This document shows, one piece after another, positions 4,812-44,539 of a DNA stretch of 61,944 nt. The translations under genes and the position numbers were made by a program. A model generated the notes under the pieces. The model was not told where the DNA came from. It saw nothing but the letters and a program-made list of their open reading frames with translations, and made no database searches. Origin of the DNA: Burkholderiales bacterium (GTDB lineage: Bacteria > Pseudomonadota > Gammaproteobacteria > Burkholderiales > JALYOK01). Position 1 is the first letter of the stretch. Each line of letters starts with the position of its first letter. Where the stretch lies: the NCBI GenBank assembly GCA_046598945.1, contig JBKJHT010000100.1:1-61944 (forward strand), in the 5' to 3' direction.

Positions 4812-5039
4812 GCGTGTCTTAGAGGGCGGTTGGGCGGTTGTGGTTGTTTTCGGCTCCCGGACTCAACTTGCGCGGTGGGAGAAAAACGCTAACATAATGA
4901 ATGTTTACGCGATAAAATACGTCTAAGAAGTGATTAAATTACCGGGGGTTGCGATGTTTCTGTATTTTACCATCCCTCGATTTGAATTCCTCGTTATTAC
5001 TGTCGCAGAACTCAATGATGCCTTACGGCTTTAGCTGCA

Positions 5040-5819
5040 ATGAAGTGTGAACGGTGCAACAGCACCAACGTGCGCCGCTCATCGTGGAAACGCAATGAGA
5101 CCGAACGCGATCATTTTGTTTACTCGCCCTATCGCTGTCGCGATTGCGAATACCGATTTTTCCGCGTCAGCGGTACCTTTAAGGGAACGTTGATCAGCGG
5201 CTTCGGCGTGCTGGCCGTACTTGGTTTTATCGCAAGCATGTATTTCATTTCCGAGCCGCCGGTCATCGAGTCGGCGTTGGCCGACGCAGAAACGTTCGAT
5301 CCCGGCCGCAAAGCCTTGTTGGATCGCGCAAAAAAGGGCAGTGCGGAGGATCAATACGCCTTGGGCTTAATGTCGCTGCAAGGTGATGGCATCCAGCAAA
5401 GTTACGGCGACGCCATCAAGTGGTTTCACGCCGCCGCGGCTCAGGGGCACACCGGCGCCGAAGTAAATCTCGGCTTGCTATACAAGAGCGGCCGTGGCGT
5501 CCTGCAAGATTACAACAGCGCCGCCCAGTGGTTACAAAAGGCCGCGGCGAAAGGCAATCCCGAAGCCGAATATCACCTGGCTTCGTTGTATAAAATTGGC
5601 CAAGGTGTGAAGCACGATATGAAACAAGCCTATGCCTGGTACAATCGCTCCGCCGCACACGGCTATGAACCGGCTGTCGCCGGCAGAGACAATATTTCAA
5701 CCTTCATGAATGCTGCGGAGGTCGCGGAGGCGCAAGCGCTGTCGCGCACCCTCTTGGAGTCAAAAGCGGCCGCCACACCGCCCCCGGCGGTATCCAGCGG
5801 CGCATTGGATCCCAAGTAA
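5040..5819 (+). CDS. Membrane-anchored Sel1-repeat protein with an N-terminal CxxC...CxxC zinc ribbon
   Basis: CERC...CRDC, one TM helix, then about three SLRs (DQYALGLM...A.KWF..AAAQG; AEVNLGLLY..G.GV; AEYHLASLY..G.GV). Confidence 0.85.
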   Translation: MKCERCNSTNVRRSSWKRNETERDHFVYSPYRCRDCEYRFFRVSGTFKGTLISGFGVLAVLGFIASMYFISEPPVIESALADAETFDPGRKALLDRAKKGSAEDQYALGLMSLQGDGIQQSYGDAIKWFHAAAAQGHTGAEVNLGLLYKSGRGVLQDYNSAAQWLQKAAAKGNPEAEYHLASLYKIGQGVKHDMKQAYAWYNRSAAHGYEPAVAGRDNISTFMNAAEVAEAQALSRTLLESKAAATPPPAVSSGALDPK

Positions 5820-5902
5820 TTTTTCTAAAATTTGCTCGAACCTTTGAGTTAGGGTAGTGTTGCCTTTTATACAATAACAACCCCCTTTTTTGGGAGCGCG
5901 CA

Positions 5903-8536
5903 ATGTTACGTAAATCCTTATCGCTGCTCGTCGTTTCTCTTATTCTGGTCGCCTGTGGTGGCGGCGGTGGTGGAGGGGGCGGCGGTGGAGACGCAACCGC
6001 ATGCGGCGCTTCGGCCGCGCCGAGCGGAACAGGGGGCGTCGGCTCCGGCGGACCCAGCGGATCATTCCAGATCTCCGGCAAATTAAACGTCGAAGTCAGC
6101 AATAAGCTTGAGGCCGAATGTAACAACACGCTCGCCACCGCGGCGGCAATGGCGCCCGGCGACTCCTTCTCGGCCCAGGCAATCAGCACCAACGCCGGTT
6201 ACAAAGGCATCACGGCGCGTAGCAGCGTAGTTGTTCACGATCTTTATCGGCTCACGGTCGGCGCGGAAAACGTGCGTGTGACGCTGAGTTTTTCCGCCAA
6301 CAATTTAACTGCAAACGATCTGGATTTATTCCTCTTGGATAGTTCGGGAACGGTTGTTACGGCCTCTTCGGAGGGCACGGACCAAGCCGTCGAAACCGTT
6401 ACCACACCCGGCCCCGGCACTTACATTGTCGGTGTGCGCGCGTTCGCGGGCGGGTCGGTTTACCTGGTTGTGGCGGGAACGACGACCGTGACCACGGCAT
6501 TGGATCGGGCAACGATATTGCCGGGCGATGAATTCGTTCCCGGTGAAGTGTTCGTCAAATATAGAGACGGTCAATCCATTCAGTCATTGGCAAGCAGGCA
6601 CGGCTTGGCGGCCGTCGGCGATATGGGCGGCGGTGTTCAATTGATGCGAGTGGCTAAACCCTTCCGCGTCGAAAAGGCCATCGTGGCTATTAGCGATAAG
6701 ATCAATGCGCTGGGACACGAGGCCAATGAAGCGGTCGGCGCCACCATCGAGGCCTTGCTCAATCTCAAGCGCGATCCGAACGTGATCTACGCCGAGCCGA
6801 ACTATATTCGCCATGCGAGTTTCATACCCAATGATCCGTTTTACCGGTACCAGTGGCATTACCCGGCTATCAACTTAGAGTCAGCATGGAACAGCGCGAC
6901 TGGCAGAAATGCCATCGTTGCCGTGATCGATACCGGAATAAAGAAAGCGCATCCCGACCTCGCCGGGCAGCTTGTAGCGGGCTACGACTTCATCAGCGAT
7001 AGCACAAATGCCGGAGATGGCGGTGGCGTCGACAGCGATCCCGAAGATGTCGGCGATGGCGCGCGCCCCGGTGAAAGTTCCTTCCATGGAACCCACGTCG
7101 CGGGTACCGTGGCAGCGGCGACCGATAATGCTATTGGGGTGGCAGGCATTGCCTTCAACGGGAAGATTATGCCGCTGCGGGTCTTGGGTAAGGGTGGTGG
7201 TACCGATGCCGATATCATTCAAGCTATCCGTTTCGCAGCCGGGTTGTCGAATAACTCGGGCGCCTTGCCGGCGAAGAAGGCGGATATCATCAATATGAGT
7301 CTTGGTGGACCACGGTCTAGCACTACGGTCCAAACGGCCGTCGACGCCGCGCGCGCGGCGGGTGTAATCGTGGTCGCGGCGGCTGGAAACGAAAATACCA
7401 GCGCGCCTTCGTTTCCGGCGGCCTACGCGGGAGTGATTTCCGTTTCCGCCGTCGGCTTGGATCTTAAGCGCGCGCCCTATTCGAATTTTGGCTCGACCAT
7501 CGACATCGCCGCACCCGGCGGCGATACCAGCGTCGATCGCAACGGCGATAGTTTCGCCGACGGTGTGCTCAGCACGCTGTTTGACGACACGTCCGTTAAA
7601 TTCAGCTACGTGTTTTATCAGGGCACCTCCATGGCGGCGCCCCATATTGCCGGGGTGCTGGCATTGATGCGCGGCGCTAATCCGGCGTTGACACCTACCG
7701 TGATTGACCAGTTGATCGCGGGCATCCATCCTACTTACAAACAGCGTATAACCTCGGATATCGGTACGGTCGGCCGCGACGATCTTTTCGGCCATGGCCT
7801 AATCGATGCCAAAAAAGCGGTGGATGCGGCGCTGGCGCTCAGCGGGCCGCCCGTTGCCGGTTCCATTCTCGCGATCTCGGTCGAGCGGTTGAGTTTCGAC
7901 AGTTTTACCAACTCGCTACAGTTCAATATAACGAATGGCGGCGATCCGATTGTGCCGTTGAACATCACGTCAGTGACGTCGCCCGATCCATGGATTAGCG
8001 TAACCCCGGCAAGCGGAGGAGCGCCGCAGCAGATTGTCGTCACCATTGACCGGGCACACGCTCAGATTGATGCCGACGGCGCCTATGATGGCCGCATTGA
8101 TATCGTGAGCAATGCGACCATCCTCCCCACCATCAAAACCATCCCGGTCACCGTGGTCGTTAGAACTAACGCTGCGATCGGCGATGCGGGTGAAATTTTT
8201 GTGCTGGTGCTCGATCCCAATACCGGCGCGACGATTAATGACACGAGTTTGCCCGAATCGCAACCATCGCCGAGTAACGGCTATCGCTATGCCATTTCCG
8301 GTATCCCGGCGGGTTTCTACTACGTCTTTGCCGGTACGGATCGCGATAATGACGGCTTTATCTGCGAGATCGAAGATGCCTGCGGCACGTTCGGTGCGTT
8401 GGTGGATTTGAGGGGCGGTGGTCCGCTCACCAATCTGAATTTTAGTGTGAACAACGCGCAGAATCCGCCGCCGCCGAGCGAGGTGCTGTCGCTTCAACGC
8501 GGTGGGCCGACGCAGAAAAAGCGGCTCAAACGCTAA
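5903..8536 (+). CDS. Subtilisin-like (S8) serine protease lipoprotein with PPC-like and Ig/BACON-like domains
   Basis: Lipobox LVAC followed by poly-Gly; catalytic motifs VAVIDTG, HGTHVAG and GTSMAAP; oxyanion AAGNE; PPC-like DLDLFLLD; C-terminal DRDNDG. Confidence 0.93.
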   Translation: MLRKSLSLLVVSLILVACGGGGGGGGGGGDATACGASAAPSGTGGVGSGGPSGSFQISGKLNVEVSNKLEAECNNTLATAAAMAPGDSFSAQAISTNAGYKGITARSSVVVHDLYRLTVGAENVRVTLSFSANNLTANDLDLFLLDSSGTVVTASSEGTDQAVETVTTPGPGTYIVGVRAFAGGSVYLVVAGTTTVTTALDRATILPGDEFVPGEVFVKYRDGQSIQSLASRHGLAAVGDMGGGVQLMRVAKPFRVEKAIVAISDKINALGHEANEAVGATIEALLNLKRDPNVIYAEPNYIRHASFIPNDPFYRYQWHYPAINLESAWNSATGRNAIVAVIDTGIKKAHPDLAGQLVAGYDFISDSTNAGDGGGVDSDPEDVGDGARPGESSFHGTHVAGTVAAATDNAIGVAGIAFNGKIMPLRVLGKGGGTDADIIQAIRFAAGLSNNSGALPAKKADIINMSLGGPRSSTTVQTAVDAARAAGVIVVAAAGNENTSAPSFPAAYAGVISVSAVGLDLKRAPYSNFGSTIDIAAPGGDTSVDRNGDSFADGVLSTLFDDTSVKFSYVFYQGTSMAAPHIAGVLALMRGANPALTPTVIDQLIAGIHPTYKQRITSDIGTVGRDDLFGHGLIDAKKAVDAALALSGPPVAGSILAISVERLSFDSFTNSLQFNITNGGDPIVPLNITSVTSPDPWISVTPASGGAPQQIVVTIDRAHAQIDADGAYDGRIDIVSNATILPTIKTIPVTVVVRTNAAIGDAGEIFVLVLDPNTGATINDTSLPESQPSPSNGYRYAISGIPAGFYYVFAGTDRDNDGFICEIEDACGTFGALVDLRGGGPLTNLNFSVNNAQNPPPPSEVLSLQRGGPTQKKRLKR

Positions 8537-8545
8537 CGGATCGAT

Positions 8546-9058
8546 ATGAAAACACGAGCTATGAACACTGCATCGGCCACCCTGGGAATAACCGCCGTTG
8601 GCATTGTTCTCAGCGCCTGCGCGACGCAGCCGCAGCCGCAGCCGTTCGAAGTCATCAACAGGGGTGTACAGACCGGCATTCGCGCGAACTCTTCCCAGGC
8701 AAACGTGGTGACGGATCGCTTCGAGCTGGACGAGCTATTCAAACAAATTACCTCGCGACAACCTTCCGTATCGGATGCGCCCAACGTGGATTTTGCTAAA
8801 GATATTGTCGTCTATGCGGCGCGCGATCCCAAACCCAGCGGCGGCTATGGGCTGAAGGTGCGCTCAGTGAAGTGTGACGGCGGCGTGATGAAGGTTGACC
8901 TGCAAGAAGTCAATCCGCAGGGCAGCGCCAATCAAACGCAAGTGATTACCCAGCCCTATGTTTTGCTGACTACGCCGCGCTGCCCGAAACTCACCCAAGT
9001 TGAGGTGTCCGGCGCGGATTTTGCCGCGCCACGGCCGATGCGGGTCGCGCCGAAGTGA
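8546..9058 (+). CDS. PrcB C-terminal-domain lipoprotein (protease complex subunit-like)
   Basis: Lipobox LSAC; VDFAKDIVV, KPSGGYGLKV and TQVITQPY match the PrcB_C pattern; starts 9 nt after the S8 gene. Confidence 0.75.
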   Translation: MKTRAMNTASATLGITAVGIVLSACATQPQPQPFEVINRGVQTGIRANSSQANVVTDRFELDELFKQITSRQPSVSDAPNVDFAKDIVVYAARDPKPSGGYGLKVRSVKCDGGVMKVDLQEVNPQGSANQTQVITQPYVLLTTPRCPKLTQVEVSGADFAAPRPMRVAPK

Positions 9059-9063
9059 CCGGG

Positions 9064-9669
9064 TTATTGCCCCACCGCCGCTCTGGCGGCGCTTTCAGAG
9101 AATCCTTGGAAGGGCCCGAGTGGGTTGCGGGTTTCCTCCGCTTCTTGGATGCGCGGCTGGCCACCCGACAGTTTATAGACCACTAAATCGCCTTTCATCA
9201 CGATCAGTCCGGTGAAGCGCCAGCCGGAAATGTCAGTGTGGCGCTTGAAGTTGAGCGCATCGAGCCAAAAATTCCCGTTGCGCTTTTTCTGCAGTGTCTT
9301 CACGTCGATTTCATAGGCGCTGCAATCGTTTTTCGCGGCGATGCATTCGCTGATACCGCGATCCAGGTTTTCCGAGGCGACGGCGGAGCTCGGAATGAAG
9401 CGGCGAATGACGTCGGAATAATTCAAGATGGTAATGTTCGGATTGCTCACCGGATCCATGCCGAGCGCGAGCAATTGCGACTTGTCCGTTTCGTAGGGTT
9501 TAATGCGATTGAAGTTCTGTGTTGCAGTATCGAAGTTCGCCCATTGCGACTTGGCGCCGCTTTCGGAACGAGGCAACAATGCCTTACAGCTACTCAGCAG
9601 AATGAGCGCAAGGATTAGACTTACAGTCTGCCGCAAGGCAAGCCGCGGGGCGAGGGTAGACCGAATCAT
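9064..9669 (-). CDS. Hypothetical lipoprotein
   Basis: 201-aa ORF with lipobox LSSC and a protein-like composition; no function recognised. Confidence 0.7.
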   Translation of the reverse strand: MIRSTLAPRLALRQTVSLILALILLSSCKALLPRSESGAKSQWANFDTATQNFNRIKPYETDKSQLLALGMDPVSNPNITILNYSDVIRRFIPSSAVASENLDRGISECIAAKNDCSAYEIDVKTLQKKRNGNFWLDALNFKRHTDISGWRFTGLIVMKGDLVVYKLSGGQPRIQEAEETRNPLGPFQGFSESAARAAVGQ

Positions 9670-9895
9670 TATAGTGAAAATCCATGTTGTTCCAGCCGTA
9701 GTAAAAAAACTTTGTTGCGGTGTTGCAGCGAAGTACGCGACTTATTTTGAAGGTATTCTACTACGCTCAGAGCTATATCATATCGAAATAGTCATCGGCC
9801 TGCGAGCTAGTATCGCCTAGGCGTTCGTCAATGGCATGGCCGGAACGCGCTCTGGTGTTGGCTTGTGGCCTGATGTATTTTTGATTCCCTAAAAA

Positions 9896-9926
9896 CAACA
9901 AGCCGGGTTTGTGGCCCGGCTTGTTG
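9896..9926 (-). terminator. Intrinsic terminator of the amidohydrolase gene
   Basis: 12-bp stem CAACAAGCCGGG/CCCGGCTTGTTG followed by a T-run on the minus strand, about 25 nt after the stop. Confidence 0.8.
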
Positions 9927-9950
9927 AGTTAAGCCGCAACGATGTTGTCG

Positions 9951-11498
9951 TTAAGCGACGGTTTCTTTCTTCGGCACATAGCCATAATACGTGTTGCTAC
10001 GATTCACATCGCCACCGTTAGCAAGGTACTCTTGCTTGATCTTGGCGAGCATATCGTTGTCCCACTGCTGGGTGCCTTCTTGCGCCATCTTCACTGGATC
10101 CAACTTGTACAAACGAGCGGAATTCAGGCCGAAGATGTTGTTCTTCACAGTACCGTTGCCGGCGCCAAGTTGGGTTTTCCAACCTTGCTGCTTCATCATG
10201 TCTTCCGGGATTTCGATACGGCGCAGGGCTTCGATTTGCCACTGTGGCGAACCGTACCATACGGAGTCGGTACCCCAGACGACGTTCTCGGAGCCCATCA
10301 TGTTGACTAACTGGCCGAGGAACGCGGCGCAGAAACGCGGGTTGGTCACGGCTACACCGGCGAACACGGAACCGAGTTCCGCGTAGACGTTCTTGTATTT
10401 CTGACCAATCTTGGCGAGATCGGTGGACCAGGGGATGTAGCCGGTTTTTTCGAACTCGGCGAGTTCTTTTTCCGGGGTATCCGCGAGCCATGGACGCAGC
10501 GCCGAGTGATAGATCACAAACCTCATCTTCGGCCAATCGCGAGCGGCTTTTTCGAGGTCGTTGACCGTCGCATGTTCCCAGGTGCCGGCGAAGGCTTTTT
10601 CGTAGTCACGGGGCATCAAGCCTTTATGAATACAAATCGTGTCGATACCGGCCTTGAGGGCTTTCTCGTAGAAGGGGTACATGAGTTTTTCGTCGTCCAG
10701 TTTCCAAGCGTACTTGGACGGGCCGAACGGATCGCCGATGGTGTAGGACTTCCAGGAAACAGGCTTCAGCGTTTCGATTGCGCGATCGACTTCGTCCATC
10801 CAGTTCGGATACTTCGGCGTGATCACGGTGTGACCCAACATCCGCACGGTGCCGGCCATCTTGTTGACGGAACGGCAAGCGTTTTGAATCGCGTCGTTGG
10901 ACAGCAACCACCAGCTCGGATCATCGAACGGCGCGCCGGACAGCAGCGACACGGTCGTTTCCGAATCCAGGAAGATTTCCTTGAGGTAGTTGTCCATCTT
11001 ATAGCGCGACAGATTCATCGGCGCGGTCATCAGGTTCGGATTGACCTTGGCGCCTTCCGCCCATTTGGTTAAGCCCAGCAAACCTTCTTGCTTGAAATCA
11101 TCGCGAACGAAGTGGGTTTGATCGTCGAAAATGAACTGGCCTTTGTAACGCGATTTACGATCGCCGGCGGCGTTCATATCCACGGCTTCGGCTTCGCTCA
11201 CATCGAACACCGGGCCGAACACTTTGTTCATCGCCATGAACGCCGTTGCCATGCCGGCCGAGGTGGCCAGGAACTCGCGACGGGACAGACCATTACGCTT
11301 AGCGTTCACATCGCCCATTTCCTTGATCAGGGCTTCGACTCTCTTTTGGTGGCCGCTTTGCGGGGGCGGATTGAATTCGCCGTTGGAAATAACTTGGGTA
11401 GGAATCGGTGATCTGAATGCGCCGGTTTCTGCGCCTTCCACCAATTTCATTTCGTCGTCGCTCATGTGAACGCCGATATGTCGTTGCATTTTGCTCAT
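9951..11498 (-). CDS. Amidohydrolase-2 family metallo-dependent hydrolase with an internal twin-arginine motif
   Basis: DDQTH, ICIHKG, VIYHS and WGTDS TIM-barrel metal motifs; SRREFL plus a hydrophobic helix near residue 72; GGAGG RBS. Confidence 0.85.
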   Translation of the reverse strand: MSKMQRHIGVHMSDDEMKLVEGAETGAFRSPIPTQVISNGEFNPPPQSGHQKRVEALIKEMGDVNAKRNGLSRREFLATSAGMATAFMAMNKVFGPVFDVSEAEAVDMNAAGDRKSRYKGQFIFDDQTHFVRDDFKQEGLLGLTKWAEGAKVNPNLMTAPMNLSRYKMDNYLKEIFLDSETTVSLLSGAPFDDPSWWLLSNDAIQNACRSVNKMAGTVRMLGHTVITPKYPNWMDEVDRAIETLKPVSWKSYTIGDPFGPSKYAWKLDDEKLMYPFYEKALKAGIDTICIHKGLMPRDYEKAFAGTWEHATVNDLEKAARDWPKMRFVIYHSALRPWLADTPEKELAEFEKTGYIPWSTDLAKIGQKYKNVYAELGSVFAGVAVTNPRFCAAFLGQLVNMMGSENVVWGTDSVWYGSPQWQIEALRRIEIPEDMMKQQGWKTQLGAGNGTVKNNIFGLNSARLYKLDPVKMAQEGTQQWDNDMLAKIKQEYLANGGDVNRSNTYYGYVPKKETVA

Positions 11499-11561
11499 GA
11501 AACTTCCTCCATCCTGTGCTCGTTTATGAAATACTGCCTGGACACGAACTGATAACTACCA

Positions 11562-11831
11562 CTACTTCTTCTTGCTATCGCTAAATTCGTACTTTTGATC
11601 CGCCTCCGCCTTGCCTTCGCAGGCCGCTGCGACATTTTTCTTTGAGTTATTGCAGGCGGTGCCCAGAGAAACTAAGGTATCACCGCCAGCGTTCTCTTTA
11701 CTGCAGAAATAGTCCATTTGGCTTTTGGCGTCTGCGCATTTTCCGGCGCGTTCATCTTTCTTGTCCGCCGCAAACGACAACGACGCTACGCAGAACAACG
11801 CGAGGCACGTCAACCCAACTGTTTTTTTCAT
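11562..11831 (-). CDS. Small secreted protein with four cysteines (C-x10-C-x16-C-x10-C)
   Basis: AGGAG RBS, Sec signal peptide ending SFA, Lys/Asp-rich mature part; co-directional with and upstream of the amidohydrolase. Confidence 0.75.
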   Translation of the reverse strand: MKKTVGLTCLALFCVASLSFAADKKDERAGKCADAKSQMDYFCSKENAGGDTLVSLGTACNNSKKNVAAACEGKAEADQKYEFSDSKKK

Positions 11832-12273
11832 ATTTTCTCTCTCCTAAAAATGACAATCATTGAGACGGCTACCATGCCGATGTGACATTTTCGATACACC
11901 TGTCTCAGCCCTTGGCGGCGGCGCGTACCGTTATCTAATACCTTCTGCGCTTGGAGCGCAAGTCCTTTGTTGGAGGATTTTCCAAGCTCGCCAAGGCGAC
12001 TTAAAAAACATCGGGTTATGGAGCGCCTTCCGGCGGAGATGGGGCCCGCGTCGGCGCCGATGTAAGGCTCGATAATATTGATAAATAGGGCCCGTAGGTC
12101 AGAAAAGTGAAACGCCTTCTGACGAATGCCTGCGATGATATTTCCCAAGCCTCGTCATAGTCCATGCGCGGCGTACTCGATCCATCGTATTAATGACTCG
12201 CTCCAAATGGATACCGGCGATGGTATGTCGTTCGGCGGGTTGCGGTTGACCCGCCCGACATTTTTTCTGTGCT

Positions 12274-33704: not shown

Positions 33705-34460
33705 ATGCTGAATCAGAATCTTACGCAATGGTTTCAGGGCCCGCTCGGCGCTTATGTGATGGCGCGCGAGCAGGCTTATTTCGACGAAGTCGTCGCGGAT
33801 ATTTTCGGATTTAACGCGCTGCAGTTTGGGTTGCCGGCGTACGATTTATTGCGTGCGAGTCGGATGCCGTTTAAGTTCAGTGCCGGGCTCGAGCCGGGTG
33901 TGACATTGCGCGCCGCAGGCGAGGCGTTGCCGGTGGCAACGCAGAGTATGGATCTGGTCGTGTTGCCACATGTGTTGGAATTTGCCGCCGAGCCCCATCA
34001 GATTTTGCGCGAAGTAGATCGAGTGATGATGCCGGAAGGACGATTGATTATCGTCGGGTTTAATCCTTGGAGTTTGTGGGGTTTGCGTCAGGCATTTGGT
34101 TTTCAGGAAAGCTCGTTGCCTTGGAGCGGGCATTTTGTTTCCCTGGTGCGTTTGAAGGATTGGCTGTCTTTGCTTGGTTTCGATGTCTCGGCGGGACGCT
34201 TGGCTTGTTATGCGCCGCCGTTTGTGAATGAAAAATGGCTAGCGCGCTTTGATTTCATGGAACGCGCCGGCGACCGCTGGTGGGGTGTGGCCGGTGGCGT
34301 GTATATGTTGCAGGCGATTAAACGCGTGCAGGGCATGCGCTTGATTACGCCCAAGTGGGCGACGCGTCCGGCGCGGCCGAGTATGGCGCAGGCGGCGCAG
34401 CGGGCGGCGCGCGTTACCACCGGTTTGTCGGATAATGTGATCCCACTACGAAAAGAATAA
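33705..34460 (+). CDS. Class I SAM-dependent methyltransferase-like protein (YafS-like)
   Basis: LPHVLEF, ILREVDRV..PEG, GFNPWSLWG and RLKDWL; canonical position before rnhA; start chosen at ATG 33705. Confidence 0.88.
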   Translation: MLNQNLTQWFQGPLGAYVMAREQAYFDEVVADIFGFNALQFGLPAYDLLRASRMPFKFSAGLEPGVTLRAAGEALPVATQSMDLVVLPHVLEFAAEPHQILREVDRVMMPEGRLIIVGFNPWSLWGLRQAFGFQESSLPWSGHFVSLVRLKDWLSLLGFDVSAGRLACYAPPFVNEKWLARFDFMERAGDRWWGVAGGVYMLQAIKRVQGMRLITPKWATRPARPSMAQAAQRAARVTTGLSDNVIPLRKE

Positions 34461-34469
34461 TAATGATGG

Positions 34470-34916
34470 GTGAGAGAAATTTCTAACGACACGATTGATA
34501 TATTTTCCGATGGCGCATGCAAGGGCAATCCCGGACCGGGCGGTTGGGGTGCGGTGTTGCGTTTTAGCGATCATGAAAAAGAAATTCACGGCGGCGAGGC
34601 GCTGACGACCAACAACCGCATGGAGATGATGGCGGTGATTGAGGCGTTGGGGCAATTGTCGGGGCCGAGTAGAGTACGGGTTTTCACCGATTCGCAATAC
34701 GTGCAAAAGGGCATCAGCGAGTGGCTGCCGGGCTGGAAGGCGCGCCGCTGGCGCACCGCGGCCAATCAACCGGTGAAGAACGTCGATCTGTGGCAGCGCA
34801 TGGATGCGCTTGCCGCGCAACATCAAATCCAATGGCTATGGGTCAAGGGCCACGCGGGACATCCGGAGAACGAGCGCGCCGACGCCCTCGCTAATCGCGG
34901 CATCGGCAAGGCGTAA
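34470..34916 (+). CDS. rnhA: Ribonuclease HI
   Basis: [24 protein letters not shown] and [15 protein letters not shown]. Confidence 0.98.
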
Positions 34917-34918
34917 CC

Positions 34919-35623
34919 ATGCGGCAAATTATTCTTGATACCGAAACGACCGGTCTTGATCCGACCCAGGGTCATCGCATCATTGAAATCGCCGGCGTTG
35001 AAGTGCTCAGCCGACGCATGACCGGCAATCACTTCCATCGCTATCTCAATCCAGAACGCAAAAGCGATGCAGCGGCGAAGCAAGTGCACGGCATCGAGGA
35101 CGAATTTTTGCTCGACAAGACGAAGTTCGCCGAGATTGCAAAAGAATTCATCGACTATATTTTCGGCGCGGAACTGATCATACACAACGCGCCGTTCGAT
35201 TTGGGATTTCTGAATAATGAACTCGGTCTGGCCGGGTTTAAGACGGTGCAGGATTACGTCGCCGGCGTGACCGATACCTTGGTTGTGGCCAAGGAACTCC
35301 ACCCCGGCAAGCGCAACAACTTGAATGCGCTATGTGATCGCTACCAGGTCGATAACAGCAAACGCACGCTGCACGGCGCCTTGCTCGACGCGGAGTTGCT
35401 CGGCGAAGTCTATCTTGCCATGACCCGTGGCCAAGAGAGCTTGATCATGGATTTAGAGGCGCCGCCACCGTCGGACGCCGATGGCGAAGCCGTCGAGCAG
35501 CAACATAATCTAGTCGTTCAGTACGCGACGAACGAAGAAATGGCCGCACACGACAAGGTATTGGCCAATATTGGCAAAGAAAGTAAAGGAAGCGCGTTAT
35601 GGCAGCAATTGACGAGTGCTTAG
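34919..35623 (+). CDS. dnaQ: DNA polymerase III epsilon subunit
   Basis: LDTETTG, HNAPFD and HGALLDA. Confidence 0.98.
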   Translation: MRQIILDTETTGLDPTQGHRIIEIAGVEVLSRRMTGNHFHRYLNPERKSDAAAKQVHGIEDEFLLDKTKFAEIAKEFIDYIFGAELIIHNAPFDLGFLNNELGLAGFKTVQDYVAGVTDTLVVAKELHPGKRNNLNALCDRYQVDNSKRTLHGALLDAELLGEVYLAMTRGQESLIMDLEAPPPSDADGEAVEQQHNLVVQYATNEEMAAHDKVLANIGKESKGSALWQQLTSA

Positions 35624-37602
35624 CACCGCTGTTTCGCATCGGTCTGTTGATCCTGTCTTTGATCGCGTCGAGTTCTGTCCCGGCGGCAGATGAAGTCGCG
35701 ATGGCCGATCCCACCGAGCGGGATTTCCTCAGCGACATGCCGGTGGTGTTGTCCGTGTCGCGACTGGCGCAGCCGTTGCCCGAGGCGCCCGGCGCGATTA
35801 CCGTGATTGACCGCGAGATGATTCGGGCCTCGGGGTTTCATGAGTTGCCCGATGTGTTGCGCCTCGTACCCGGCTTTTTAGTGGGACATTTGACTGGCGG
35901 AATTACCACGGTGAACTATCACGCCCTGGCGGAAGACAACTCGCGACGTATGCAAGTATTGGTCGATGGGCGCTCGGTCTACACGCCGAGTTTCGGCGGC
36001 GTGGATTGGGCGAATCTGCCGATCGCCCTGGAAGACGTCGATCGCATCGAGGTGATACGCGGACCAAACGGGGCAACCTTCGGCGCCAATGCATTTCTTG
36101 CCACCATCAACATCATCACGCGGCATCCGTCCCAGGATGAAGGCGCGGCGATGGCCTTCTCGGCAGGCCAGGAAGATTTGCGCGTCGGCTACGTGCGTTT
36201 CGGCAAAACCATCGGCAATCTTGACTTTAGAGTCAGTGCCCGGTACCAGGAAGACGCCGGATTGGGTTCGTTACCGGACGACAAAGATATTGCACTGATC
36301 AATAGCCGATTATCCTATCGGCTGGGTAACCGCGACGCCCTCGATTTTCAGTTCGGTGTGAATCACAGCAACGCCGAATTCGGTTCGACCACCAATCCAA
36401 CGAATGCCGTCAGGCCGATACGCGCCAAGGGCGCATTCGCGCAACTGAAATGGCGTCACGAATTATCCGATGAGAGTGAACTTTCACTGCAGTTTTATCA
36501 CACCCAGCGCGATGTCAAAGATGAGTTTCAGTTCATTGTTCCGCTGGCGGCCAGGCCCCTCATTGGCCTGAGCGAGTTGACCCTCGGGCTTAGCTACGAG
36601 GAACAACGGGACAATATTGAGTTCCAGCATTCAACGCGATTGCGCGACGACCTGCGTATCGTGTGGGGCGCGGAAGGGCGGCGTGATGCGGTGCATTCAA
36701 TGCGTCTGTACGGAACCGATAAGGATTTGACGAGCACGCTGGCACGCCTGTTTGGCAACGCCGAATGGCGGATCACGCCAAAATGGTTGGCGAATGTTGG
36801 GCTGATGACCGAGCGTTCCAGCATTACCGGGACGGCATTCTCGCCGCGCCTGGCGATAAATTATTTATTCATGCCGGATCACACGCTCCGGGCAAGTGCG
36901 TCCAGCGGCAAACGCACACCGCTGGTGACCGAAGAAAAGGCCGACTACTATTTTCGTACGCCGATTTTTTTCGACCAAGTGTGGCGCGCCAAAGGCGATC
37001 TGCGCGCCGAGACCATTCACTCAGTCGAATTTGGCTACCTGGGGCGCCTTTGGGATGGCCGCGTGGTTTGGGATAGTCGGGTGTATCGCGATCAGTTGCG
37101 CGATTTGATTACGGTATTCCGCGACCCGACCAAAGAAAATATCATCCCACAACAACAGGGTTGGCTTACTTGGGAAAATGCCGAAGACGTGTTAGTTACC
37201 GGCCTGGAAACCCAGGTGCAGGCGCGTTTGCGCACCGATACGCGCATCGTGCTCAATCACGCCTATACACGCATCAAGGCGAGCAATGTGCGATCTAGCT
37301 TGGATCTAGCTGAAACCGGCCCGCGCCACTCGGCGAGCGCGTTGCTGATTCAATCCTTACCGAAAAATTTCGATGTCAGCCTGGGGATTTATTACCTGGG
37401 CCCCATGCGCTGGGCCGGCAGCGGCGATCTGATTCCGAGTTATACGCGTTTCGATTTGCGAGTCGCCCATCGTTTCAAGTTCGGCGCGGCCAATGCGGAG
37501 ATTGCCGCCGGCGTGCAAAATTTGACCGGTGAGTATGTCGATTTTAACGACGTTAATATTCTAAGCCGTCGCGCCTATTTGAGCGTTGCGGCAGAGTTTT
37601 GA
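35599..37602 (+). CDS. TonB-dependent receptor (plug and barrel); start uncertain
   Basis: Plug motifs DVLRLVPG, VLVDGR and RIEVIRGP; GVQNL; terminal Phe. Confidence 0.92.
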   Translation: MAAIDECLAPLFRIGLLILSLIASSSVPAADEVAMADPTERDFLSDMPVVLSVSRLAQPLPEAPGAITVIDREMIRASGFHELPDVLRLVPGFLVGHLTGGITTVNYHALAEDNSRRMQVLVDGRSVYTPSFGGVDWANLPIALEDVDRIEVIRGPNGATFGANAFLATINIITRHPSQDEGAAMAFSAGQEDLRVGYVRFGKTIGNLDFRVSARYQEDAGLGSLPDDKDIALINSRLSYRLGNRDALDFQFGVNHSNAEFGSTTNPTNAVRPIRAKGAFAQLKWRHELSDESELSLQFYHTQRDVKDEFQFIVPLAARPLIGLSELTLGLSYEEQRDNIEFQHSTRLRDDLRIVWGAEGRRDAVHSMRLYGTDKDLTSTLARLFGNAEWRITPKWLANVGLMTERSSITGTAFSPRLAINYLFMPDHTLRASASSGKRTPLVTEEKADYYFRTPIFFDQVWRAKGDLRAETIHSVEFGYLGRLWDGRVVWDSRVYRDQLRDLITVFRDPTKENIIPQQQGWLTWENAEDVLVTGLETQVQARLRTDTRIVLNHAYTRIKASNVRSSLDLAETGPRHSASALLIQSLPKNFDVSLGIYYLGPMRWAGSGDLIPSYTRFDLRVAHRFKFGAANAEIAAGVQNLTGEYVDFNDVNILSRRAYLSVAAEF

Positions 37603-38588
37603 TTTTTAAGACTGGTAATGCGAAGTCTATGAGACTGGCGTTAATCGCTACCGTGGAGACCGTCCGCGCATTGGGTTTGTGCGGGGTGCTGAGTGTGTTC
37701 GTCCATTCCGCGGCGGCGCACAATATCGCCATTGTTATCAGTGAGGAAACGTCGGCGTACATCGAGATCGCCGATGGTGTGCGGCACACGGTTGAGAACC
37801 ATGGCCAAAATGCGCTGAAGATCATTGCCATTCCCGCGCAGCGGCTGATCGGCGGCGAAACCGACATATTCAGGACCGATTTCTATAGTTTGGTGGTGAC
37901 GGTGGGCGCCCATGCCGCGAACTTGGTGGCGAAGACCGAGGTCCAAGCGCCGGTGTTGAATACGCTTATCCCGCGCGCGTTGTACGAGCGCTTGGCGACG
38001 CGTGATGGTCAGAACTCGGCGATCTACCTCGATCAACCGTTAACGCGGCGATTGGAATTGGCGCGAATTGTGTTGCCGGGGAAAACGCGCCTGTGCGTTG
38101 TGTACGGTCCGCAATCGCGGGCTTACATTGCGGAATTGGAGCGGCTGGCAACGGCCAAGGGATATAGCGTTGTGGCGGAAATGGTGGATCGCGCCGACGA
38201 TTTGGGCCCGGTGCTGCAGCGCTCTTTGTCGCGCTGCGAGTTTTTGTTCGCACTGCCGGACGCCGATATTTTTAACCGCAACACCATCCAACAAATTTTG
38301 CTGACCAGTTATCACTCGAACGCTCCGGTGATTGCGTTTTCCGCGGCCCATGTCAAGTCGGGCGCGCTTGCCGCGGTGTTTACCTCGCCAGACCAGGTTG
38401 CACGACACACGGCCGAGGTGATATTGAAGTTGCATACCGATGGCAAGTTTACGCTGCCGCCGCCGCAGTTTCCGCTGTATTGGAGCGTCAGCGTCAATCG
38501 CCAAGTCGCCCGCTCTTTGGGGCTGGTGATCAGCGATGATAAGGAACTTCAGACAAAGCTTAGTAAGGTGCCGGAGGAAGTGCAATGA
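37599..38588 (+). CDS. Periplasmic ABC-transporter substrate-binding-like protein with no adjacent permease or ATPase
   Basis: Hydrophobic N-terminus; VVTVG, IYLDQP, LFALPD..IFN, VKSGALAA and VNRQVARSLG resemble the ABC_sub_bind-type fold. Alternative ATG at 37629. Confidence 0.78.
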   Translation: MIFKTGNAKSMRLALIATVETVRALGLCGVLSVFVHSAAAHNIAIVISEETSAYIEIADGVRHTVENHGQNALKIIAIPAQRLIGGETDIFRTDFYSLVVTVGAHAANLVAKTEVQAPVLNTLIPRALYERLATRDGQNSAIYLDQPLTRRLELARIVLPGKTRLCVVYGPQSRAYIAELERLATAKGYSVVAEMVDRADDLGPVLQRSLSRCEFLFALPDADIFNRNTIQQILLTSYHSNAPVIAFSAAHVKSGALAAVFTSPDQVARHTAEVILKLHTDGKFTLPPPQFPLYWSVSVNRQVARSLGLVISDDKELQTKLSKVPEEVQ

Positions 38589-40744
38589 GAAATTGGAGCA
38601 TCAAGTGGCGCGTGCTGTTACTGGCGTTGATTCCACCCATTGCCATTTCTTTGATATTGGCGGTTTACTTCACCAAGGTGCGTTTCGGCGAAGTGCAGCA
38701 ATCACTGCACGACCGCGGCCGTGCGCTGGTGCGCCAGTTGGCGCCGGCTACCGAATATGGCTTGTTTACGCGCAATCGCGAGATTCTCCAGGATTTGGCT
38801 GACACGGTGCGGCGCGAGGTCGACGTCAGCCTAGTCACCATCTCGGACGGCGCCGGGCAGTTCTTAGCGGTCAGCGGCGATTTGGAACAACGCGAGGTAT
38901 TGACGGAAAAGCCGCGCAGCATCAGCCTCGGAATATTGGAATATCCCGAACTGCTGTATTTCAGCGAACCGATACGCCGTGCCGGCGCCTACGATAAGGA
39001 TATTGCCGAGCAGTCGTTCGAGGAACCGGGCACGGGGGAGTCTAAGAAGGAGATGTTGGGTTGGGTAAACGTCACCATGAGTAAAGGCTCGACGCTGAAG
39101 CGCCAGCAGGAAATCCTGCTCAATGGCGCTATGATCGCATTCGGTAGTGTGTTGCTGACGGGGCTACTCGCACTAAGGCTTAGCCTGGGCATAACGCGTC
39201 CGATTCGACGCTTGGTCACTGCCGTGGAACAAATCACCGAAGGCGATTTGTCGGTACATGTATCGGCCACGTCCGGTGGCGAGTTGACGGTGTTGGCGCG
39301 CGGCATTAATAGCATGGCGCAGACCCTCAAGTCGGCGCAGGAAAACCTGCAGGAAAAAGTCGATCAGGCCACGGCGCAGATCACCTATCAAGCCAGCCAC
39401 GACACCTTAACGGGACTGATTAATCGACGCGAGTTTGAATCACGCCTAGAGCGGGCGCTGGTGAGTGCTCAACAGCATGGCAAAGTGCACGCGCTGTTTT
39501 TTATTGACTTGGATCAGTTCAAAATCGTTAATGACACCTGCGGCCACACTGCCGGCGATGAACTATTGCGCCAAGTCGCTCATCAATTGCGGCAGAAAAT
39601 TCGGGATCGCGATACCTTGGGGCGCATCGGCGGTGATGAGTTTACGGTGTTGTTGGAAAATTGCTACCTTGATGATGCCGTGGAAATCGCTCAGCAGTTG
39701 CGCGAGACGGTGCAAAATTTTCGCTTTGCTTGGGGCCAGAAATTTTTTGCCATCGGCGCTTCGATCGGGATCACCGTCATCACCAACACCAGCGAGAGTG
39801 CCGCGGTGCTATTGAGTCAGGCCGATGCCGCCTGCTACACCGCCAAGGATTTGGGCCGCAATCGCGTTTATGTTTTTAATGAGGACGATGCCTCGCGCAT
39901 TGCGCGCGTCGGCGCGATGGAATGGGTGACGCGTATCGCTCATGCGTTCCAAGAAGATCGTTTCGTTCTTTATTGCCAATCCATTTTGCCGTTGCGCGGC
40001 GCCAAGGAAGGCGATCCTTACCACTACGAAATCCTCTTGCGCATGCGTGGTGAAAACGGCGAGATCATTCCGCCCATGGCATTTGTTCCGGCGGCGGAAC
40101 GCTTTAACCAGATGCACGCGATCGATCGCTGGGTGATCCACGAAAGTTTCTCGGTGTTACGCAATTTAATGCAGGGGCAGCGTGGCGGATTGATGACGGT
40201 TTTTTCGATCAATTTGTCTGGCGCATCGTTGTGCGACGAGAAATTTTCGGTGTTCTTGCGAGAGCAGCTTACACATTTCGATATTCCACCGCGCAATATT
40301 TGTTTTGAAATCACCGAAACCGCCGCGATCAGCAATTTGACCCAGGCGGTGACATTGATCCAGCACTTCAAGCGGCTTGGCTGTAAGTTCGTGCTCGATG
40401 ATTTCGGCGCCGGTCTATCGTCGTTCAACTATCTCAAACATTTACCCGTTGACGGTATCAAGATCGACGGCGGATTCGTCAAAGGCATGGCGACTAATCG
40501 CATGGATTTCACCATGGTCGAGGCGATCAACAATATCGGCCACGCCATGGGGTTGACCACCACGGCGGAGTTTGTGGAGGACGACACGATCATGCGCATG
40601 TTGCTCGATCTAGGCGTGGACTATGCCCAAGGCCATTGGGTGCAACGCCCGCGCCCAGTAGGCGAGTGGTTTTCGCATGATGGGGATAACAAACGCAATG
40701 TCGATTTGAAGTTGCGGCTCATTGCGCGTTCGAGCGACAAATGA
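38585..40744 (+). CDS. Membrane c-di-GMP enzyme: BarA/GacS-like sensor, HAMP, GGDEF and EAL
   Basis: Two TM helices flanking LAPATEYGL; HAMP (PIRRL...GDL...EL); HDTLTGL; RDRD I-site; GGDEF; EILLR, EITE, DDFG and KID. Confidence 0.93.
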   Translation: MRNWSIKWRVLLLALIPPIAISLILAVYFTKVRFGEVQQSLHDRGRALVRQLAPATEYGLFTRNREILQDLADTVRREVDVSLVTISDGAGQFLAVSGDLEQREVLTEKPRSISLGILEYPELLYFSEPIRRAGAYDKDIAEQSFEEPGTGESKKEMLGWVNVTMSKGSTLKRQQEILLNGAMIAFGSVLLTGLLALRLSLGITRPIRRLVTAVEQITEGDLSVHVSATSGGELTVLARGINSMAQTLKSAQENLQEKVDQATAQITYQASHDTLTGLINRREFESRLERALVSAQQHGKVHALFFIDLDQFKIVNDTCGHTAGDELLRQVAHQLRQKIRDRDTLGRIGGDEFTVLLENCYLDDAVEIAQQLRETVQNFRFAWGQKFFAIGASIGITVITNTSESAAVLLSQADAACYTAKDLGRNRVYVFNEDDASRIARVGAMEWVTRIAHAFQEDRFVLYCQSILPLRGAKEGDPYHYEILLRMRGENGEIIPPMAFVPAAERFNQMHAIDRWVIHESFSVLRNLMQGQRGGLMTVFSINLSGASLCDEKFSVFLREQLTHFDIPPRNICFEITETAAISNLTQAVTLIQHFKRLGCKFVLDDFGAGLSSFNYLKHLPVDGIKIDGGFVKGMATNRMDFTMVEAINNIGHAMGLTTTAEFVEDDTIMRMLLDLGVDYAQGHWVQRPRPVGEWFSHDGDNKRNVDLKLRLIARSSDK

Positions 40745-40925
40745 GTGGGGCCTTACCCATGCAGGCATTATAATATCAAGCGTTCCATGCTGAGCGTGGT
40801 TGGCTGTAACGGCAATCAGCGAGCGGTTCTCCAGGCGGTCATGGCTGGAAGCCAATCTCCGCGCGCCTTCTGGCAATGGCCTGGTTTTAACGAGATCGTC
40901 CCCTTTTCATAAGCAATTTCGATTC

Positions 40926-41447
40926 ATGAATGTAGTGGGTTTCGCCGGATTCTCCGGTAGCGGCAAAACGACGTTGATCGAGGCGATTATTCCGCTGCTC
41001 GTTGCGCGCGGTTTACGCGTGTCGTTGATCAAGCACGCGCATCACAGCTTCGACGTCGATCAGCCGGGCAAGGATTCTTATCGCCATCGCGCGGCCGGGG
41101 CAACGCAGGTGTTAGTGGCTTCGCAACAACGCTGGGTGTTGATGCATGAATTGCGCGATGCGGCGGAGCCGAGCTTGGACGAGCATCTTCAGCGCATCGC
41201 CGATTGCGATGTGGTGTTGGTCGAAGGATTCAAACGTGCCGCGATCGCGAAAATCGAAGTGCATCGCGCCGGCGCCGCGACATCGTTGTTATACCCCGGC
41301 GATCCGCATATTGTCGCCGTCGCTACGGACGAGCCGCTCGATACCCGGCTACCGCAACTGAACATCAATCGGCCCGTCGAGATCGCGGATTTTATCTACG
41401 GCAGTAAAGTTGCCGCGCCACCCCAACAATTACGCAACGCTCTATGA
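40926..41447 (+). CDS. mobB: Molybdopterin-guanine dinucleotide biosynthesis protein B
   Basis: GFSGSGKTT, IKHAHH.FDVD.PGKDS and LVEGFK; ATG at 40926. Confidence 0.95.
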   Translation: MNVVGFAGFSGSGKTTLIEAIIPLLVARGLRVSLIKHAHHSFDVDQPGKDSYRHRAAGATQVLVASQQRWVLMHELRDAAEPSLDEHLQRIADCDVVLVEGFKRAAIAKIEVHRAGAATSLLYPGDPHIVAVATDEPLDTRLPQLNINRPVEIADFIYGSKVAAPPQQLRNAL

Positions 41448-41698
41448 TAAATATTCTGTATTTTGCTCGAATTAAAGAAGCGCTAGGCGTTGGTCAAGAA
41501 TCGATTGCTCTGCCAAAGGACGCCAACGATGTAGCCGGTCTGACCGCTTGGTTACGCCAGCGCGGCGTTGCCTGGCAAACGGAACTGGCGCCGGGCAAGG
41601 CATTGCGGGTGGCGGTGAATCAAGTGATGGTGGGCATGGACGCGGCGATCACGGACGGCGACGAGATTGCCTATTTCCCACCGGTGACAGGGGGTTGA
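41444..41698 (+). CDS. moaD: Molybdopterin synthase sulfur carrier subunit
   Basis: ILYFA, AVNQ and C-terminal FPPVTGG. Confidence 0.96.
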   Translation: MINILYFARIKEALGVGQESIALPKDANDVAGLTAWLRQRGVAWQTELAPGKALRVAVNQVMVGMDAAITDGDEIAYFPPVTGG

Positions 41699-42380: not shown

Positions 42381-43559
42381 CTAGGGCGCGACGGATTCAG
42401 GCGCGCGATTTTCCGACAAGGCGGTGGAATTTTTATTGAGACGGAACACCAGTGGTTTGATCTCAACATTTTGTTTCGAAAGTTCCGCGAGTGCCACGGC
42501 TTCCGTCACCAAATGATGCTTGGGCGACAGATCACAAATCGGATCGGTGTTGGTTGCATCCTGCGTCAACATATAAGCCTGACAACGGCAGCCGCCGAAA
42601 TCCTTGGTCTTCTCCGGGCAGGAGCGGCACGGCTCCTTCATCCAACTATCGCCACGATAAATGTTGAACGCGTCGGAGTCGTACCAAATTTTATCCAGCG
42701 ACATGTCGCGTACGGTCGGGAAATCAATGCCGGGTAGCATGCGCGCTTCGTGGCACGGCAATACCATGCCGTCTGGTGCGATGTTGATGAAAATGTTGCC
42801 CCAGCCGTTCATGCAGGCCTTCGGCCGCGTAGCGTGATAGTCCGGCACGACGAAAAAGATTTTCATCTTATCGCCGATGCGTTTGCGGAATTCGTTGACG
42901 TAGGCTTCGGCTTTATCTAACTGTGCGTGGGTCGGCAGCAGTTGATCGCGGTTCAAAAAACTCCAGCCGTAATATTGCGTATTGGCGAGCTCGACGTAGT
43001 CGGCGTCCATCTCTTCCGCCAGGCCCAATATCTTGTCGATGTGGTCGAGGTTCATGCGATGTAACACGACGTTCAACACCATCGGATAGTCGTATTCCTT
43101 TACCAAGCGAGCGATCTTTTTCTTCAGATCAAAGGTCTTGGTGCTGGAAAGAAAATCATTCATCTCCCTGGTGGAATCTTGGAACGAAACTTGAATATGA
43201 TCCAGGCCATTGTCTTTCAGGCGCTTGATGCGTGCCTCGTTCATGCCGATGCCGGAGGTGAGCAGGTTGGTGTAGAAGCCGAGTTTATGCGCCTCGGCGA
43301 CAATCTCTTCAAGATCATCGCGCAGCAGCGGTTCGCCGCCGGAGAGGCCGAGTTGCACCACACCCATCTTGCGCGCTTCGGTGAGTACGCGAACCCATTC
43401 GGCCGTGGTCAGCTCTTGATCGTACTTAGCATAATCAATTGGGTTGTAGCAATACACGCAATGCAGCGGACATTGATAGGTCAACTCAACATTGAGCCAC
43501 TGCGGATAAGGAATGTCGCTACGCTGCACTTGTTTTAACTCTGACCCAACCGTTTCCAT
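42381..43559 (-). CDS. pqqE: PqqA peptide cyclase (radical SAM/SPASM)
   Basis: [32 protein letters not shown] and GGCRCQA. Confidence 0.97.
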
Positions 43560-43815
43560 GAGCTATCTCCAGGCCAGCCAGCACATCTTTGCGCAAGTCC
43601 GGCTCGTTAAATGTCTTCTGTAACTCTTCGGCAATCGCGGCGATGGTGGCATTGCCATCGACGCGCTTGATAATTTCTCCGGCGCTGCCGTTCAATTGCA
43701 CGCGGCCTTCCGGATAAAGCAACACATAGGCTTTCGGCACTTCTTCCCATTGCAAGCGGAAGTGCTTGGAAATTTCCATGGTGTCCGTCAACTCAAGCGG
43801 CTTCTTTTCGCTCAC
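43519..43815 (-). CDS. pqqD: PqqD peptide chaperone (RRE)
   Basis: [22 protein letters not shown]. Confidence 0.95.
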
Positions 43816-44539
43816 GCTTGGCCTCCATGATTTGCTCAGGTGTTAGATAGTTGAAGGCCATGGAATCCAACATCGACCACAACACATCAAGTTTGAATTG
43901 CAGTATATCCAACGCCCGTTCCTGCAATGGACGTGTATTGAAATATTCCAGCGTGATTCCCAAGCCTTGCTCGACATCGCGGCGCGCCTGAGCGATGCGT
44001 TTTTTGAAGTAGGACAAGCCCTCTTCTTTGATCCACGGATAATGCTCGGGCCAGGTGTTGATGCGTTCCTTGTGAATATGCGGCGCGAACAATTCCGTCA
44101 GCGAGGAACAAACCGATTCTTGCCACGGGCGCTGCCGCGCAAAATTGATATACGCCTCGACGGAAAAACGCACGCCGGGCAGCACATACTTCAACGACGT
44201 TATCTCTTCGCGCGTGACGCCGACCGCGTCGCCGAGCCGAATCCAGGTTTCGATGCCGCCTTCGTCTTCACCAAAACCATCGTGATCGAGAATGCGTTGA
44301 ATCCATCCGCGCCGCACTTCTTGGTCGGGACAATTGCTCATCACCGCCGCATCTTTAATCGGAATGCTGATCTGATAGAAGAAACGATTTGCCACCCACT
44401 TGCGCACTTGATCCGGCGTCAGTTTGCCGGAATTCAGCAGCACGTTGAAGGGATGATAGATGTGATAGCCCTTGCCCTTTTCGCGCAACTTCGCTTCAAA
44501 TTCCTCTTTGCTCCAGGGGAGTATTTCGTTCGCACCCAT
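43793..44539 (-). CDS. pqqC: Pyrroloquinoline quinone synthase
   Basis: [36 protein letters not shown] and FKLDVLW. Confidence 0.97.

Follow-up and report, generated by a model that had tools for sequence, protein, structure and literature searches.

A candidate sensory module of a TonB-dependent receptor, an orphan binding protein and a sCache_4-HAMP-GGDEF-EAL protein in a Burkholderiales bacterium

What does a bacterium gain from three consecutive genes that code for an outer-membrane receptor, a periplasmic binding protein and an inner-membrane enzyme of cyclic di-GMP (c-di-GMP) turnover? This question is raised by a locus in contig JBKJHT010000100.1 of assembly GCA_046598945.1, from a Burkholderiales bacterium, of which positions 1 to 61,944 were analysed (this whole stretch is called the window). 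The locus has, in this order and on one strand, genes for a TonB-dependent receptor (TBDR), a PF04392-like substrate-binding protein (SBP) and a sCache_4 sensor that carries GGDEF and EAL domains. We lean towards the view that it encodes a c-di-GMP sensor assisted by the SBP and supplied by a receptor of its own, in which case the window would hold a copy of a three-gene sensory module that is widespread and so far uncharacterised. The parts of the locus are the following.

35599..37602, + strand: TBDR gene, 667 aa
35734..35766, + strand: TonB-box-like motif DMPVVLSVSRL (TBDR residues 46-56), which lines up with the very N-terminus of mature BtuB and CirA
37629..38588 (probable), + strand: SBP gene, PF04392-type binding protein, 319 aa from the ATG at 37629; the longest open reading frame (ORF), 37599-38588, starts from the TTG at 37599
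38585..38588, + strand: ATGA overlap of the SBP stop codon with the sensor start codon; GGAGGAA lies 7 nt upstream
38585..40744, + strand: gene of the inner-membrane sensor-enzyme, 719 aa (transmembrane helix 1, sCache_4, transmembrane helix 2, HAMP, GGDEF, EAL)
38681..39109, + strand: sCache_4 periplasmic domain, residues 33-175 (PF09984, E 7.5e-17; same coordinates in a whole-genome search)
39182..39331, + strand: HAMP domain, residues 200-249 (PF00672, E 1.5e-12)
39392..39865, + strand: GGDEF domain, residues 270-427 (PF00990, E 6.6e-45)
39932..40651, + strand: EAL domain, residues 450-689 (PF00563, E 2.1e-61)

The three ORFs lie where the original prediction, made from the sequence, had placed them (35599-37602, 37599-38588 and 38585-40744, all on the + strand), and searches with hidden Markov models bore out its assignments, Pfam identifying a TBDR, a PF04392 SBP and a sCache_4-HAMP-GGDEF-EAL protein.

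Conserved pairing and exchanged outputs

A sample of loci was built by scanning a single genome of each species with patterns from ten close SBP sequences, which gave 137 relatives, the best 80 of which were kept. A sCache_4-HAMP protein directly follows the SBP in 78 of these 80 loci (L020 is counted among them despite an over-extended ORF start). The contig of L021 ends 271 nt past the SBP gene, and the true exception to the pairing is L043, which has no sensor. This locus (4676-11983 of a Rhodocyclus purpureus record) is a decaying cassette, with its TBDR split into ORFs of 127 and 607 aa and an intact SBP gene followed by purL. A second sample, independent of the search patterns, consisted of 400 scored genomes drawn evenly from the window's class; a cassette-type SBP (E <= 1e-30) was found in 75 of them, belonging to 61 of 321 genera. 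Among the best 29 loci of this sample, the sensor is downstream in all 28 that are informative (the remaining one is at a contig edge), the TBDR is upstream in 28, and all three parts are present in 27. A phylum-wide sample gave matches in 13 of 401 genomes, all in the same class as the window. The SBP-sensor pair is near-obligate, and its adjacency is far beyond chance, since the gene order recurs in 78/80 and 28/28 informative loci. ABC transporters are not associated with this pairing: ATPase motifs occur in six of the 2352 ORFs of the 80 loci, none of them beside the SBP, and the regular ABC permease partner that would have spoken against the original prediction is not seen, no ABC gene being adjacent in any of the 80.

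The part that follows the sensory domain is, on the other hand, exchangeable, as had been predicted. In a table of 79 rows (the window and 78 loci), 24 sensors end in GGDEF-EAL, 20 in GGDEF only and 33 in kinase types, and two are cut by contig ends; a maximum-likelihood tree of the SBP requires at least seven output changes. In ten representatives analysed with Pfam, the sCache_4-HAMP front end occurs with four types of kinase output (HisKA-HATPase; HisKA-HATPase-REC; HisKA-HATPase-REC-Hpt, which is BarA-like; and PAS-kinase), and one clade shows the order SBP, hybrid kinase, REC-GGDEF regulator, TBDR. The survey of neighbourhoods therefore agrees with the idea of a modular cassette whose output can be swapped: one SBP family precedes sCache_4-HAMP sensors that end in GGDEF-EAL, GGDEF or a kinase, and co-occurs with kinases and with GGDEF(-EAL) proteins that share the sCache_4 domain.

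The receptor follows a looser rule. Of the same 79 rows, 57 have it directly upstream, 7 have it downstream, 12 lack it and three are uninformative, and its presence or position changes state at least eight times on the SBP tree, so that the TBDR is a usual but dispensable accessory part. Where present, cassette TBDRs match P0001 at E values of 1e-74 to 1e-142, against 2e-17 for an unrelated TBDR in the same loci, and judged by these matches they are one lineage that travels with the cassette. Relatives share a chromosomal site with the order methyltransferase-rnhA-dnaQ-[TBDR]-SBP-sensor-mobB-moaE. The block methyltransferase-rnhA-dnaQ-cassette-mobB-moaDE is positionally conserved in 17 related loci.

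Domains of the three proteins and layout of the locus

The SBP matches PF04392 (ABC_sub_bind) with 46.1 bits, above the cut-off of 25.9, and begins with a predicted Sec signal peptide, after which it is modelled as a two-lobed type I binding-protein fold. With 79 sequences as input, AlphaFold2 gave a model with a pLDDT of 92.8; its best folds are 3LFT (with L-Trp), 3LKV and CD0873 (6HNI/6HNJ), with a TM-score of 0.73 to the open form 6HNJ, and it further matches binding proteins of the ribose, glucose and TorT types. The profile of the SBP family matches 3LKV at E 1e-19. Invariant or near-invariant polar residues of the family (S130, D135, Q136, R140, D211, S238, K243 and N290) are located in the model in loops after beta-strands of both lobes, presumably at positions of the kind where type I binding proteins usually contact their ligand. 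The protein was also considered as an ABC transporter component, the TrpX equivalog, and this was rejected: it scores 47.5 bits on that model, which demands 390, and no ABC gene is found in its flanks or beside the SBP in the 80 loci. When SBP residues 31-319 were co-folded with sCache_4 residues 31-176 on custom alignments, the uncontrolled runs scored 0.68, 0.02 and 0.02, values that speak neither for nor against a contact.

In the sensor, PF09984 lies between two transmembrane helices and is followed by HAMP, as in sensors of the sCache_4/BarA-GacS kind. The resemblance of its N-terminus to BarA and GacS, noticed in the original prediction, is real, because NCBIfam aligns residues 1-265 to BarA positions 1-264 (E 3e-40). 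As a BarA equivalog the protein was rejected: it scores 138 bits against a cut-off of 890 over model positions 1-264 only, and is so far below because it has no kinase, lacking the receiver and Hpt domains as well. The output was correctly read as intact GGDEF, with its RxxD I-site, and EAL in place of a kinase. The segment RDRDTLGRIGGDEF at residues 340-353 contains RDRD, five residues and GGDEF, the arrangement expected of a GG(D/E)EF diguanylate cyclase with RxxD five residues upstream, and both I-site and GGDEF are shared by each of the 44 listed related sensors that carry a GGDEF domain. The catalytic motifs of EAL phosphodiesterases are ExLxR, E(L/I)TE, DDFGxGxS, KxD and ExVE, and the window sensor has EILLR, EITE, DDFGAGLS, KID and EFVE. 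By motif, both domains are thus predicted to be active.

The TBDR exceeds the cut-offs of Pfam for the plug (PF07715, E 5e-17) and the barrel (TonB_dep_Rec_b-barrel PF00593, E 2e-31). It is composed of a signal peptide, a short N-terminus, a plug at residues 62-166 and a 22-strand-type barrel at residues 214-642. The motif DMPVVLSVSRL, which we take to be the TonB box from its place near the mature N-terminus, corresponds to PvVLsaSRLxQP, whose conservation among 59 cassette TBDRs is at least 80%. Sequence matches in the Protein Data Bank (CirA and BtuB) are limited to the plug and start at residue 48-49; neither these alignments nor the comparison of the 59 cassette receptors shows an N-terminal signalling extension. 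The best NCBIfam match is the TOL_0244 family (NF053590), with 233.2 bits over the full length. Membership was ruled out, since the cut-off is 645, and a search of the class with this model separates two tiers, one of 418-884 bits and one of 205-268 bits that comprises the cassette type, including the window TBDR. The lead to alkanes through TOL_0244/OmpS, a link that is proteomic only in the passages of PMC6304351 that concern it, was accordingly dropped for a receptor outside the family and is retained only as a weak hint about the ligand.

Overlapping stop and start codons had been predicted at both junctions. The ATGA at 38585-38588 stands, and a 4-nt overlap of SBP and sensor genes recurs in 62 of 78 loci (with inferred sensor starts). 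The TTGA at 37599-37602 is present in the sequence and likely unused: since 18 of 21 aligned homologues start at or after the Met ten codons past the TTG (the ATG at 37629), it is probably an artefact of choosing the longest ORF, which makes the gap between the TBDR and SBP genes likely 26 nt. DNA contigs from four soil/sediment runs span all three gene junctions, with no joint that skips the TBDR; these contigs confirm the gene layout only. Among the 24 runs listed, none with RNA contains the locus. Upstream, the flanking ORFs are glcD-like, xylose-isomerase-like, a methyltransferase, rnhA and dnaQ, and downstream mobB, moaD, moaE, pqqE and pqqC. As predicted, none of these ten neighbours codes for an ABC permease or ATPase, TonB/ExbBD, an ECF sigma factor or FecR. 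The dnaQ-like gene (34919-35623) overlaps the annotated TBDR start (35599) by 25 nt, and the pqqE-like (radical SAM/SPASM) and pqqC-like genes lie on the - strand at 42381-44539, just past the moa/mob genes.

The assembly of the window has 4.14 Mb in 259 contigs. A local scan of this genome found one cassette copy, four TBDR-like ORFs, about 26 GGDEF ORFs and 14 EAL ORFs, and no YfiR-like ORF. In whole-genome search the window sensor is the sole sCache_4 protein, and three TonB_C genes above the cut-off are located elsewhere. The window SBP scores 46 bits on PF04392, versus 136-178 bits for seven canonical paralogues. These seven genes form tandem arrays on contigs C56 (1760-6004), C150 (424-2785) and C258 (5368-6450), where the ORFs examined nearby include no ABC permease or ATPase; the neighbours include a sulfate permease, a cytochrome c, a dCache_1 kinase and an NMT1-like protein. 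The arrays may be an expansion of orphan binding proteins.

A proposed mechanism and its rivals

The core of the module would be a two-part periplasmic sensor, made of an orphan PF04392 SBP that has lost its ABC partner and a sCache_4-HAMP protein. The SBP would be made together with the sensor, dock on its periplasmic domain and act as its co-sensor, as NspS does for MbaA and ScrB for ScrC. Because the catalytic and I-site motifs are all intact, the GGDEF-EAL tandem most likely balances c-di-GMP synthesis against breakdown, and the TBDR most likely imports the ligand across the outer membrane so that it reaches the SBP. The sequences themselves show the coupling at the level of genes; ligand binding by the SBP, its contact with the sensor, the sign of its influence on c-di-GMP and the import role of the receptor are what we infer from the data given above.

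Several observations weigh against this proposal. In ten related loci that occupy the shared chromosomal site (L003-L009, L012, L014 and L015), dnaQ and the SBP gene have no TBDR between them. Cassette-type TBDRs lie elsewhere in the genomes of L012 and L014; whole-genome searches of those of L003, L007 and L009, whose completeness is unreported, found none, their best TBDR matches having E values of 4e-23, 4.5e-12 and 4e-16, respectively. At L002 (4248-4790), whose SBP is 80% identical, the TBDR is a 180-aa in-frame remnant that joins residues 1-85 to about 573-667. The SBP and sensor of L002 are intact, and its remnant may be an artefact of metagenome assembly. A scan for promoters and terminators over 34400-41600 gave three promoter-like and eight terminator-like sites, no more than the means of shuffled sequences. 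The published PF04392 structures bind L-Trp, L-Tyr and L-Phe, the known ligands of this family being amino acids (PMC10443332, Table 1). Small molecules of this kind would not normally depend on a TBDR. Finally, the sCache_4 domain might itself bind the ligand. Since the receptor is absent or a remnant where the SBP-sensor pair is intact, models that require the TBDR are wrong for those lineages, and the originally predicted relay is not supported in a form that needs all three parts: the nearest relatives keep the pair with their TBDR lost or reduced, and the TBDR lacks a signalling domain.

These facts bear on a first alternative, a sequestration relay like that of YfiBNR, which corresponds to the trans-envelope model of the original prediction and in which the SBP constitutively represses or holds the sensor and is pulled off it as the TBDR changes state, for instance when ligand binds at the cell surface, the signal crossing the envelope without import. 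It draws on homologous TOL_0244-type TBDRs, which stand beside YfiR/HmsC-like genes in 22 of 26 loci (the sensors that come next are CHASE8-HAMP in the two checked by Pfam), and on a protein (P0108) in which DUF4154 and PF04392 are fused, but we consider it unlikely in view of a receptor whose plug starts about 18 residues past the signal peptide, with no periplasmic signalling domain, of the close relatives that keep the SBP-sensor pair without TBDR, and of a comparison by hhalign between the SBP family and the YfiR-like family that gave a probability of 0.6%.

Alternatively, the sCache_4 domain could be the real ligand receptor and the SBP homologue a ligand-independent accessory, such as a stabiliser or a fixed modulator. 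The SBP has diverged far from canonical PF04392 (46 bits), sCache/PDC domains often bind small ligands directly, and for GacS a putative pocket of the periplasmic domain has been proposed (in passages of PMC5595915). Set against this, the SBP keeps in the model a confident two-lobed fold near the open form of a ligand binder (the 6HNJ match) and family-wide invariant polar residues at strand ends, and BarA and GacS, as far as described, work without such a partner (among 14 control genomes, E. coli matches sCache_4 and not PF04392), so this alternative, too, seems improbable to us. That the TBDR and SBP are a nutrient uptake pair feeding an unlinked ABC transporter, next to a merely co-regulated sensor, is conceivable because PF04392 is annotated as an ABC transporter component and the seven canonical PF04392 genes are also without adjacent permease in the contigs examined, but very hard to reconcile with a sensor that follows the SBP in nearly every locus of both samples, across many families and through output swaps, with the recurrent 4-nt gene overlap and with the lack of any adjacent ABC gene.

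With the SBP-assisted sensor as the preferred reading, a wider and more speculative one can be formulated. One TBDR lineage, together with proteins of the PF04392/YfiR fold, could conceivably be a general outer-to-inner-membrane input module for HAMP sensors of the BarA/GacS (sCache_4) and YfiN (CHASE8) kinds, reporting the TonB-powered capture of a scarce compound to c-di-GMP enzymes or phosphorelays, including the Pseudomonas kinase PA1611, which feeds Gac/Rsm. We hold this idea only tentatively; if true, it would offer a concrete and testable route to the long-missing input signals of this class of sensors. Such signals are unknown for most c-di-GMP enzymes and likewise for BarA/GacS-type sensors, and that of GacS is called 'evanescent' in a passage of one review (PMC7695008). 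The cassette ties a sCache_4 sensor to two proteins that are open to purification and ligand screening, and it is a natural case of several outputs served by a single sensing front end. Because a Pseudomonas-like genome has the same module ahead of a hybrid kinase, in the PA1613-PA1611 order, its ligand could also account for one input of the Gac/Rsm lifestyle switch.

SBP-assisted c-di-GMP sensors and the three-compartment logic of YfiBNR are already known. New are the pairing of PF04392 with sCache_4, its systematic link to a dedicated TBDR lineage and the parallel version with YfiR and CHASE8. Searches of the full-text literature (subscription journals and supplementary files lay outside their scope) found no description of these three elements, of a TBDR-PF04392-sCache_4 cassette or of a function for PA1612.

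Comparison with known systems

TBDRs that signal on their own, such as FecA with FecR and FecI, have an N-terminal signalling domain of about 80 residues and FecR/ECF partners. The window TBDR differs in both respects: it has no such domain, the plug alignment starting from residue 48, and no FecR or ECF gene is nearby. The sensor, for its part, shares with BarA and GacS an N-terminal transmembrane helix, sCache_4, a second transmembrane helix and HAMP, and is unlike them in that kinase, receiver and Hpt domains are all missing; for BarA and GacS, no SBP or TBDR has been described as a partner.

A counterpart in gene order had been named in the original prediction, PA1613-PA1612-PA1611 of Pseudomonas aeruginosa, with a hybrid kinase. 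According to passages of PMC3462791, the PA1612-PA1611 operon is co-transcribed with fabAB and PA1613 is upstream; PA1613 is treated as an iron-acquisition protein (in part of PMC9864456), and PA1611 is described as a hybrid kinase that relieves the inhibition of GacS by RetS (in parts of PMC7695008 and PMC5595915). The relevant passages of these four papers give no sensing role to PA1612 or PA1613. A Pseudomonas-like locus (L174, G480:C1:3893000-3909000) in a complete 6.23-Mb genome of the same class as the window has the order TBDR (723 aa), SBP-like protein (306 aa), sCache_4-HAMP-HisKA-HATPase-REC kinase (638 aa), fabA and fabB. This fits the PA1613-to-fabB order of the passages in PMC3462791, and so supports the comparison made there; the likeness is one of order, and the output of this locus is a hybrid kinase, versus GGDEF-EAL here. 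The SBP-like protein of L174 matches the profile of the cassette SBP (A4) at E 3e-48, and would be left hypothetical by standard annotation because it is below the Pfam threshold for PF04392.

NspS-MbaA of Vibrio cholerae and ScrB-ScrC of V. parahaemolyticus are GGDEF-EAL sensors driven by an SBP; passages of PMC8050422 describe NspS and ScrB as controlling the c-di-GMP output of their partners without transport. As in the window, an orphan SBP gene lies beside a gene for a transmembrane GGDEF-EAL protein. The parts are different, since those SBPs belong to SBP_bac_8 or SBP_bac_3 and their sensors have dCache-like domains, whereas Pfam finds PF04392 and sCache_4 here, and those systems have no TBDR; the terms TonB, 'outer membrane', PF04392 and PF09984 do not occur in the text of PMC8050422. 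By analogy, the module may work like NspS-MbaA without being a member of that type.

YfiBNR and HmsCDE share with the cassette one component per envelope compartment and an inner-membrane HAMP-GGDEF partner. Where YfiBNR has an OmpA-like lipoprotein the window has a TBDR, and CHASE8 there is replaced here by sCache_4, with an additional EAL; the SBP, a complete PF04392 protein with both lobes, has no Pfam match to DUF4154. The window proteins contain neither DUF4154 nor CHASE8, and no flanking gene is OmpA-like. According to passages of PMC4655355, the closest solved folds to YfiR are PF04392 proteins, YfiR resembling one PF04392 lobe. The hhalign comparison found no link at the level of sequence, so the cassette would work like YfiBNR and yet not be a member, and its connection to YfiR rests on that published comparison of structures, on a parallel cassette and on one fusion. 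The parallel cassette was seen at 26 loci (L133-L158) with a TBDR of the upper TOL_0244 tier, in 22 of which a YfiR/HmsC-like gene adjoins the TBDR. Pfam confirmed DUF4154 in two of these YfiR-like neighbours, and in 16 of the 26 loci the following protein matches the sensor profile, two that were checked by Pfam being CHASE8-HAMP; by these domain matches it is a YfiRN-like pair in which a TBDR takes the position of YfiB. The fusion, P0108 (484 aa), naturally joins a YfiR-like DUF4154 (57-192) to PF04392 (247-464). The likeness to YfiBNR drawn in the original prediction therefore proves closer than an analogy, homologous TBDRs occurring with YfiR-like and CHASE8 proteins, although the window cassette itself is outside that family, and the parallel cassette and the fusion are, as far as their domains tell, what links it to YfiBNR.

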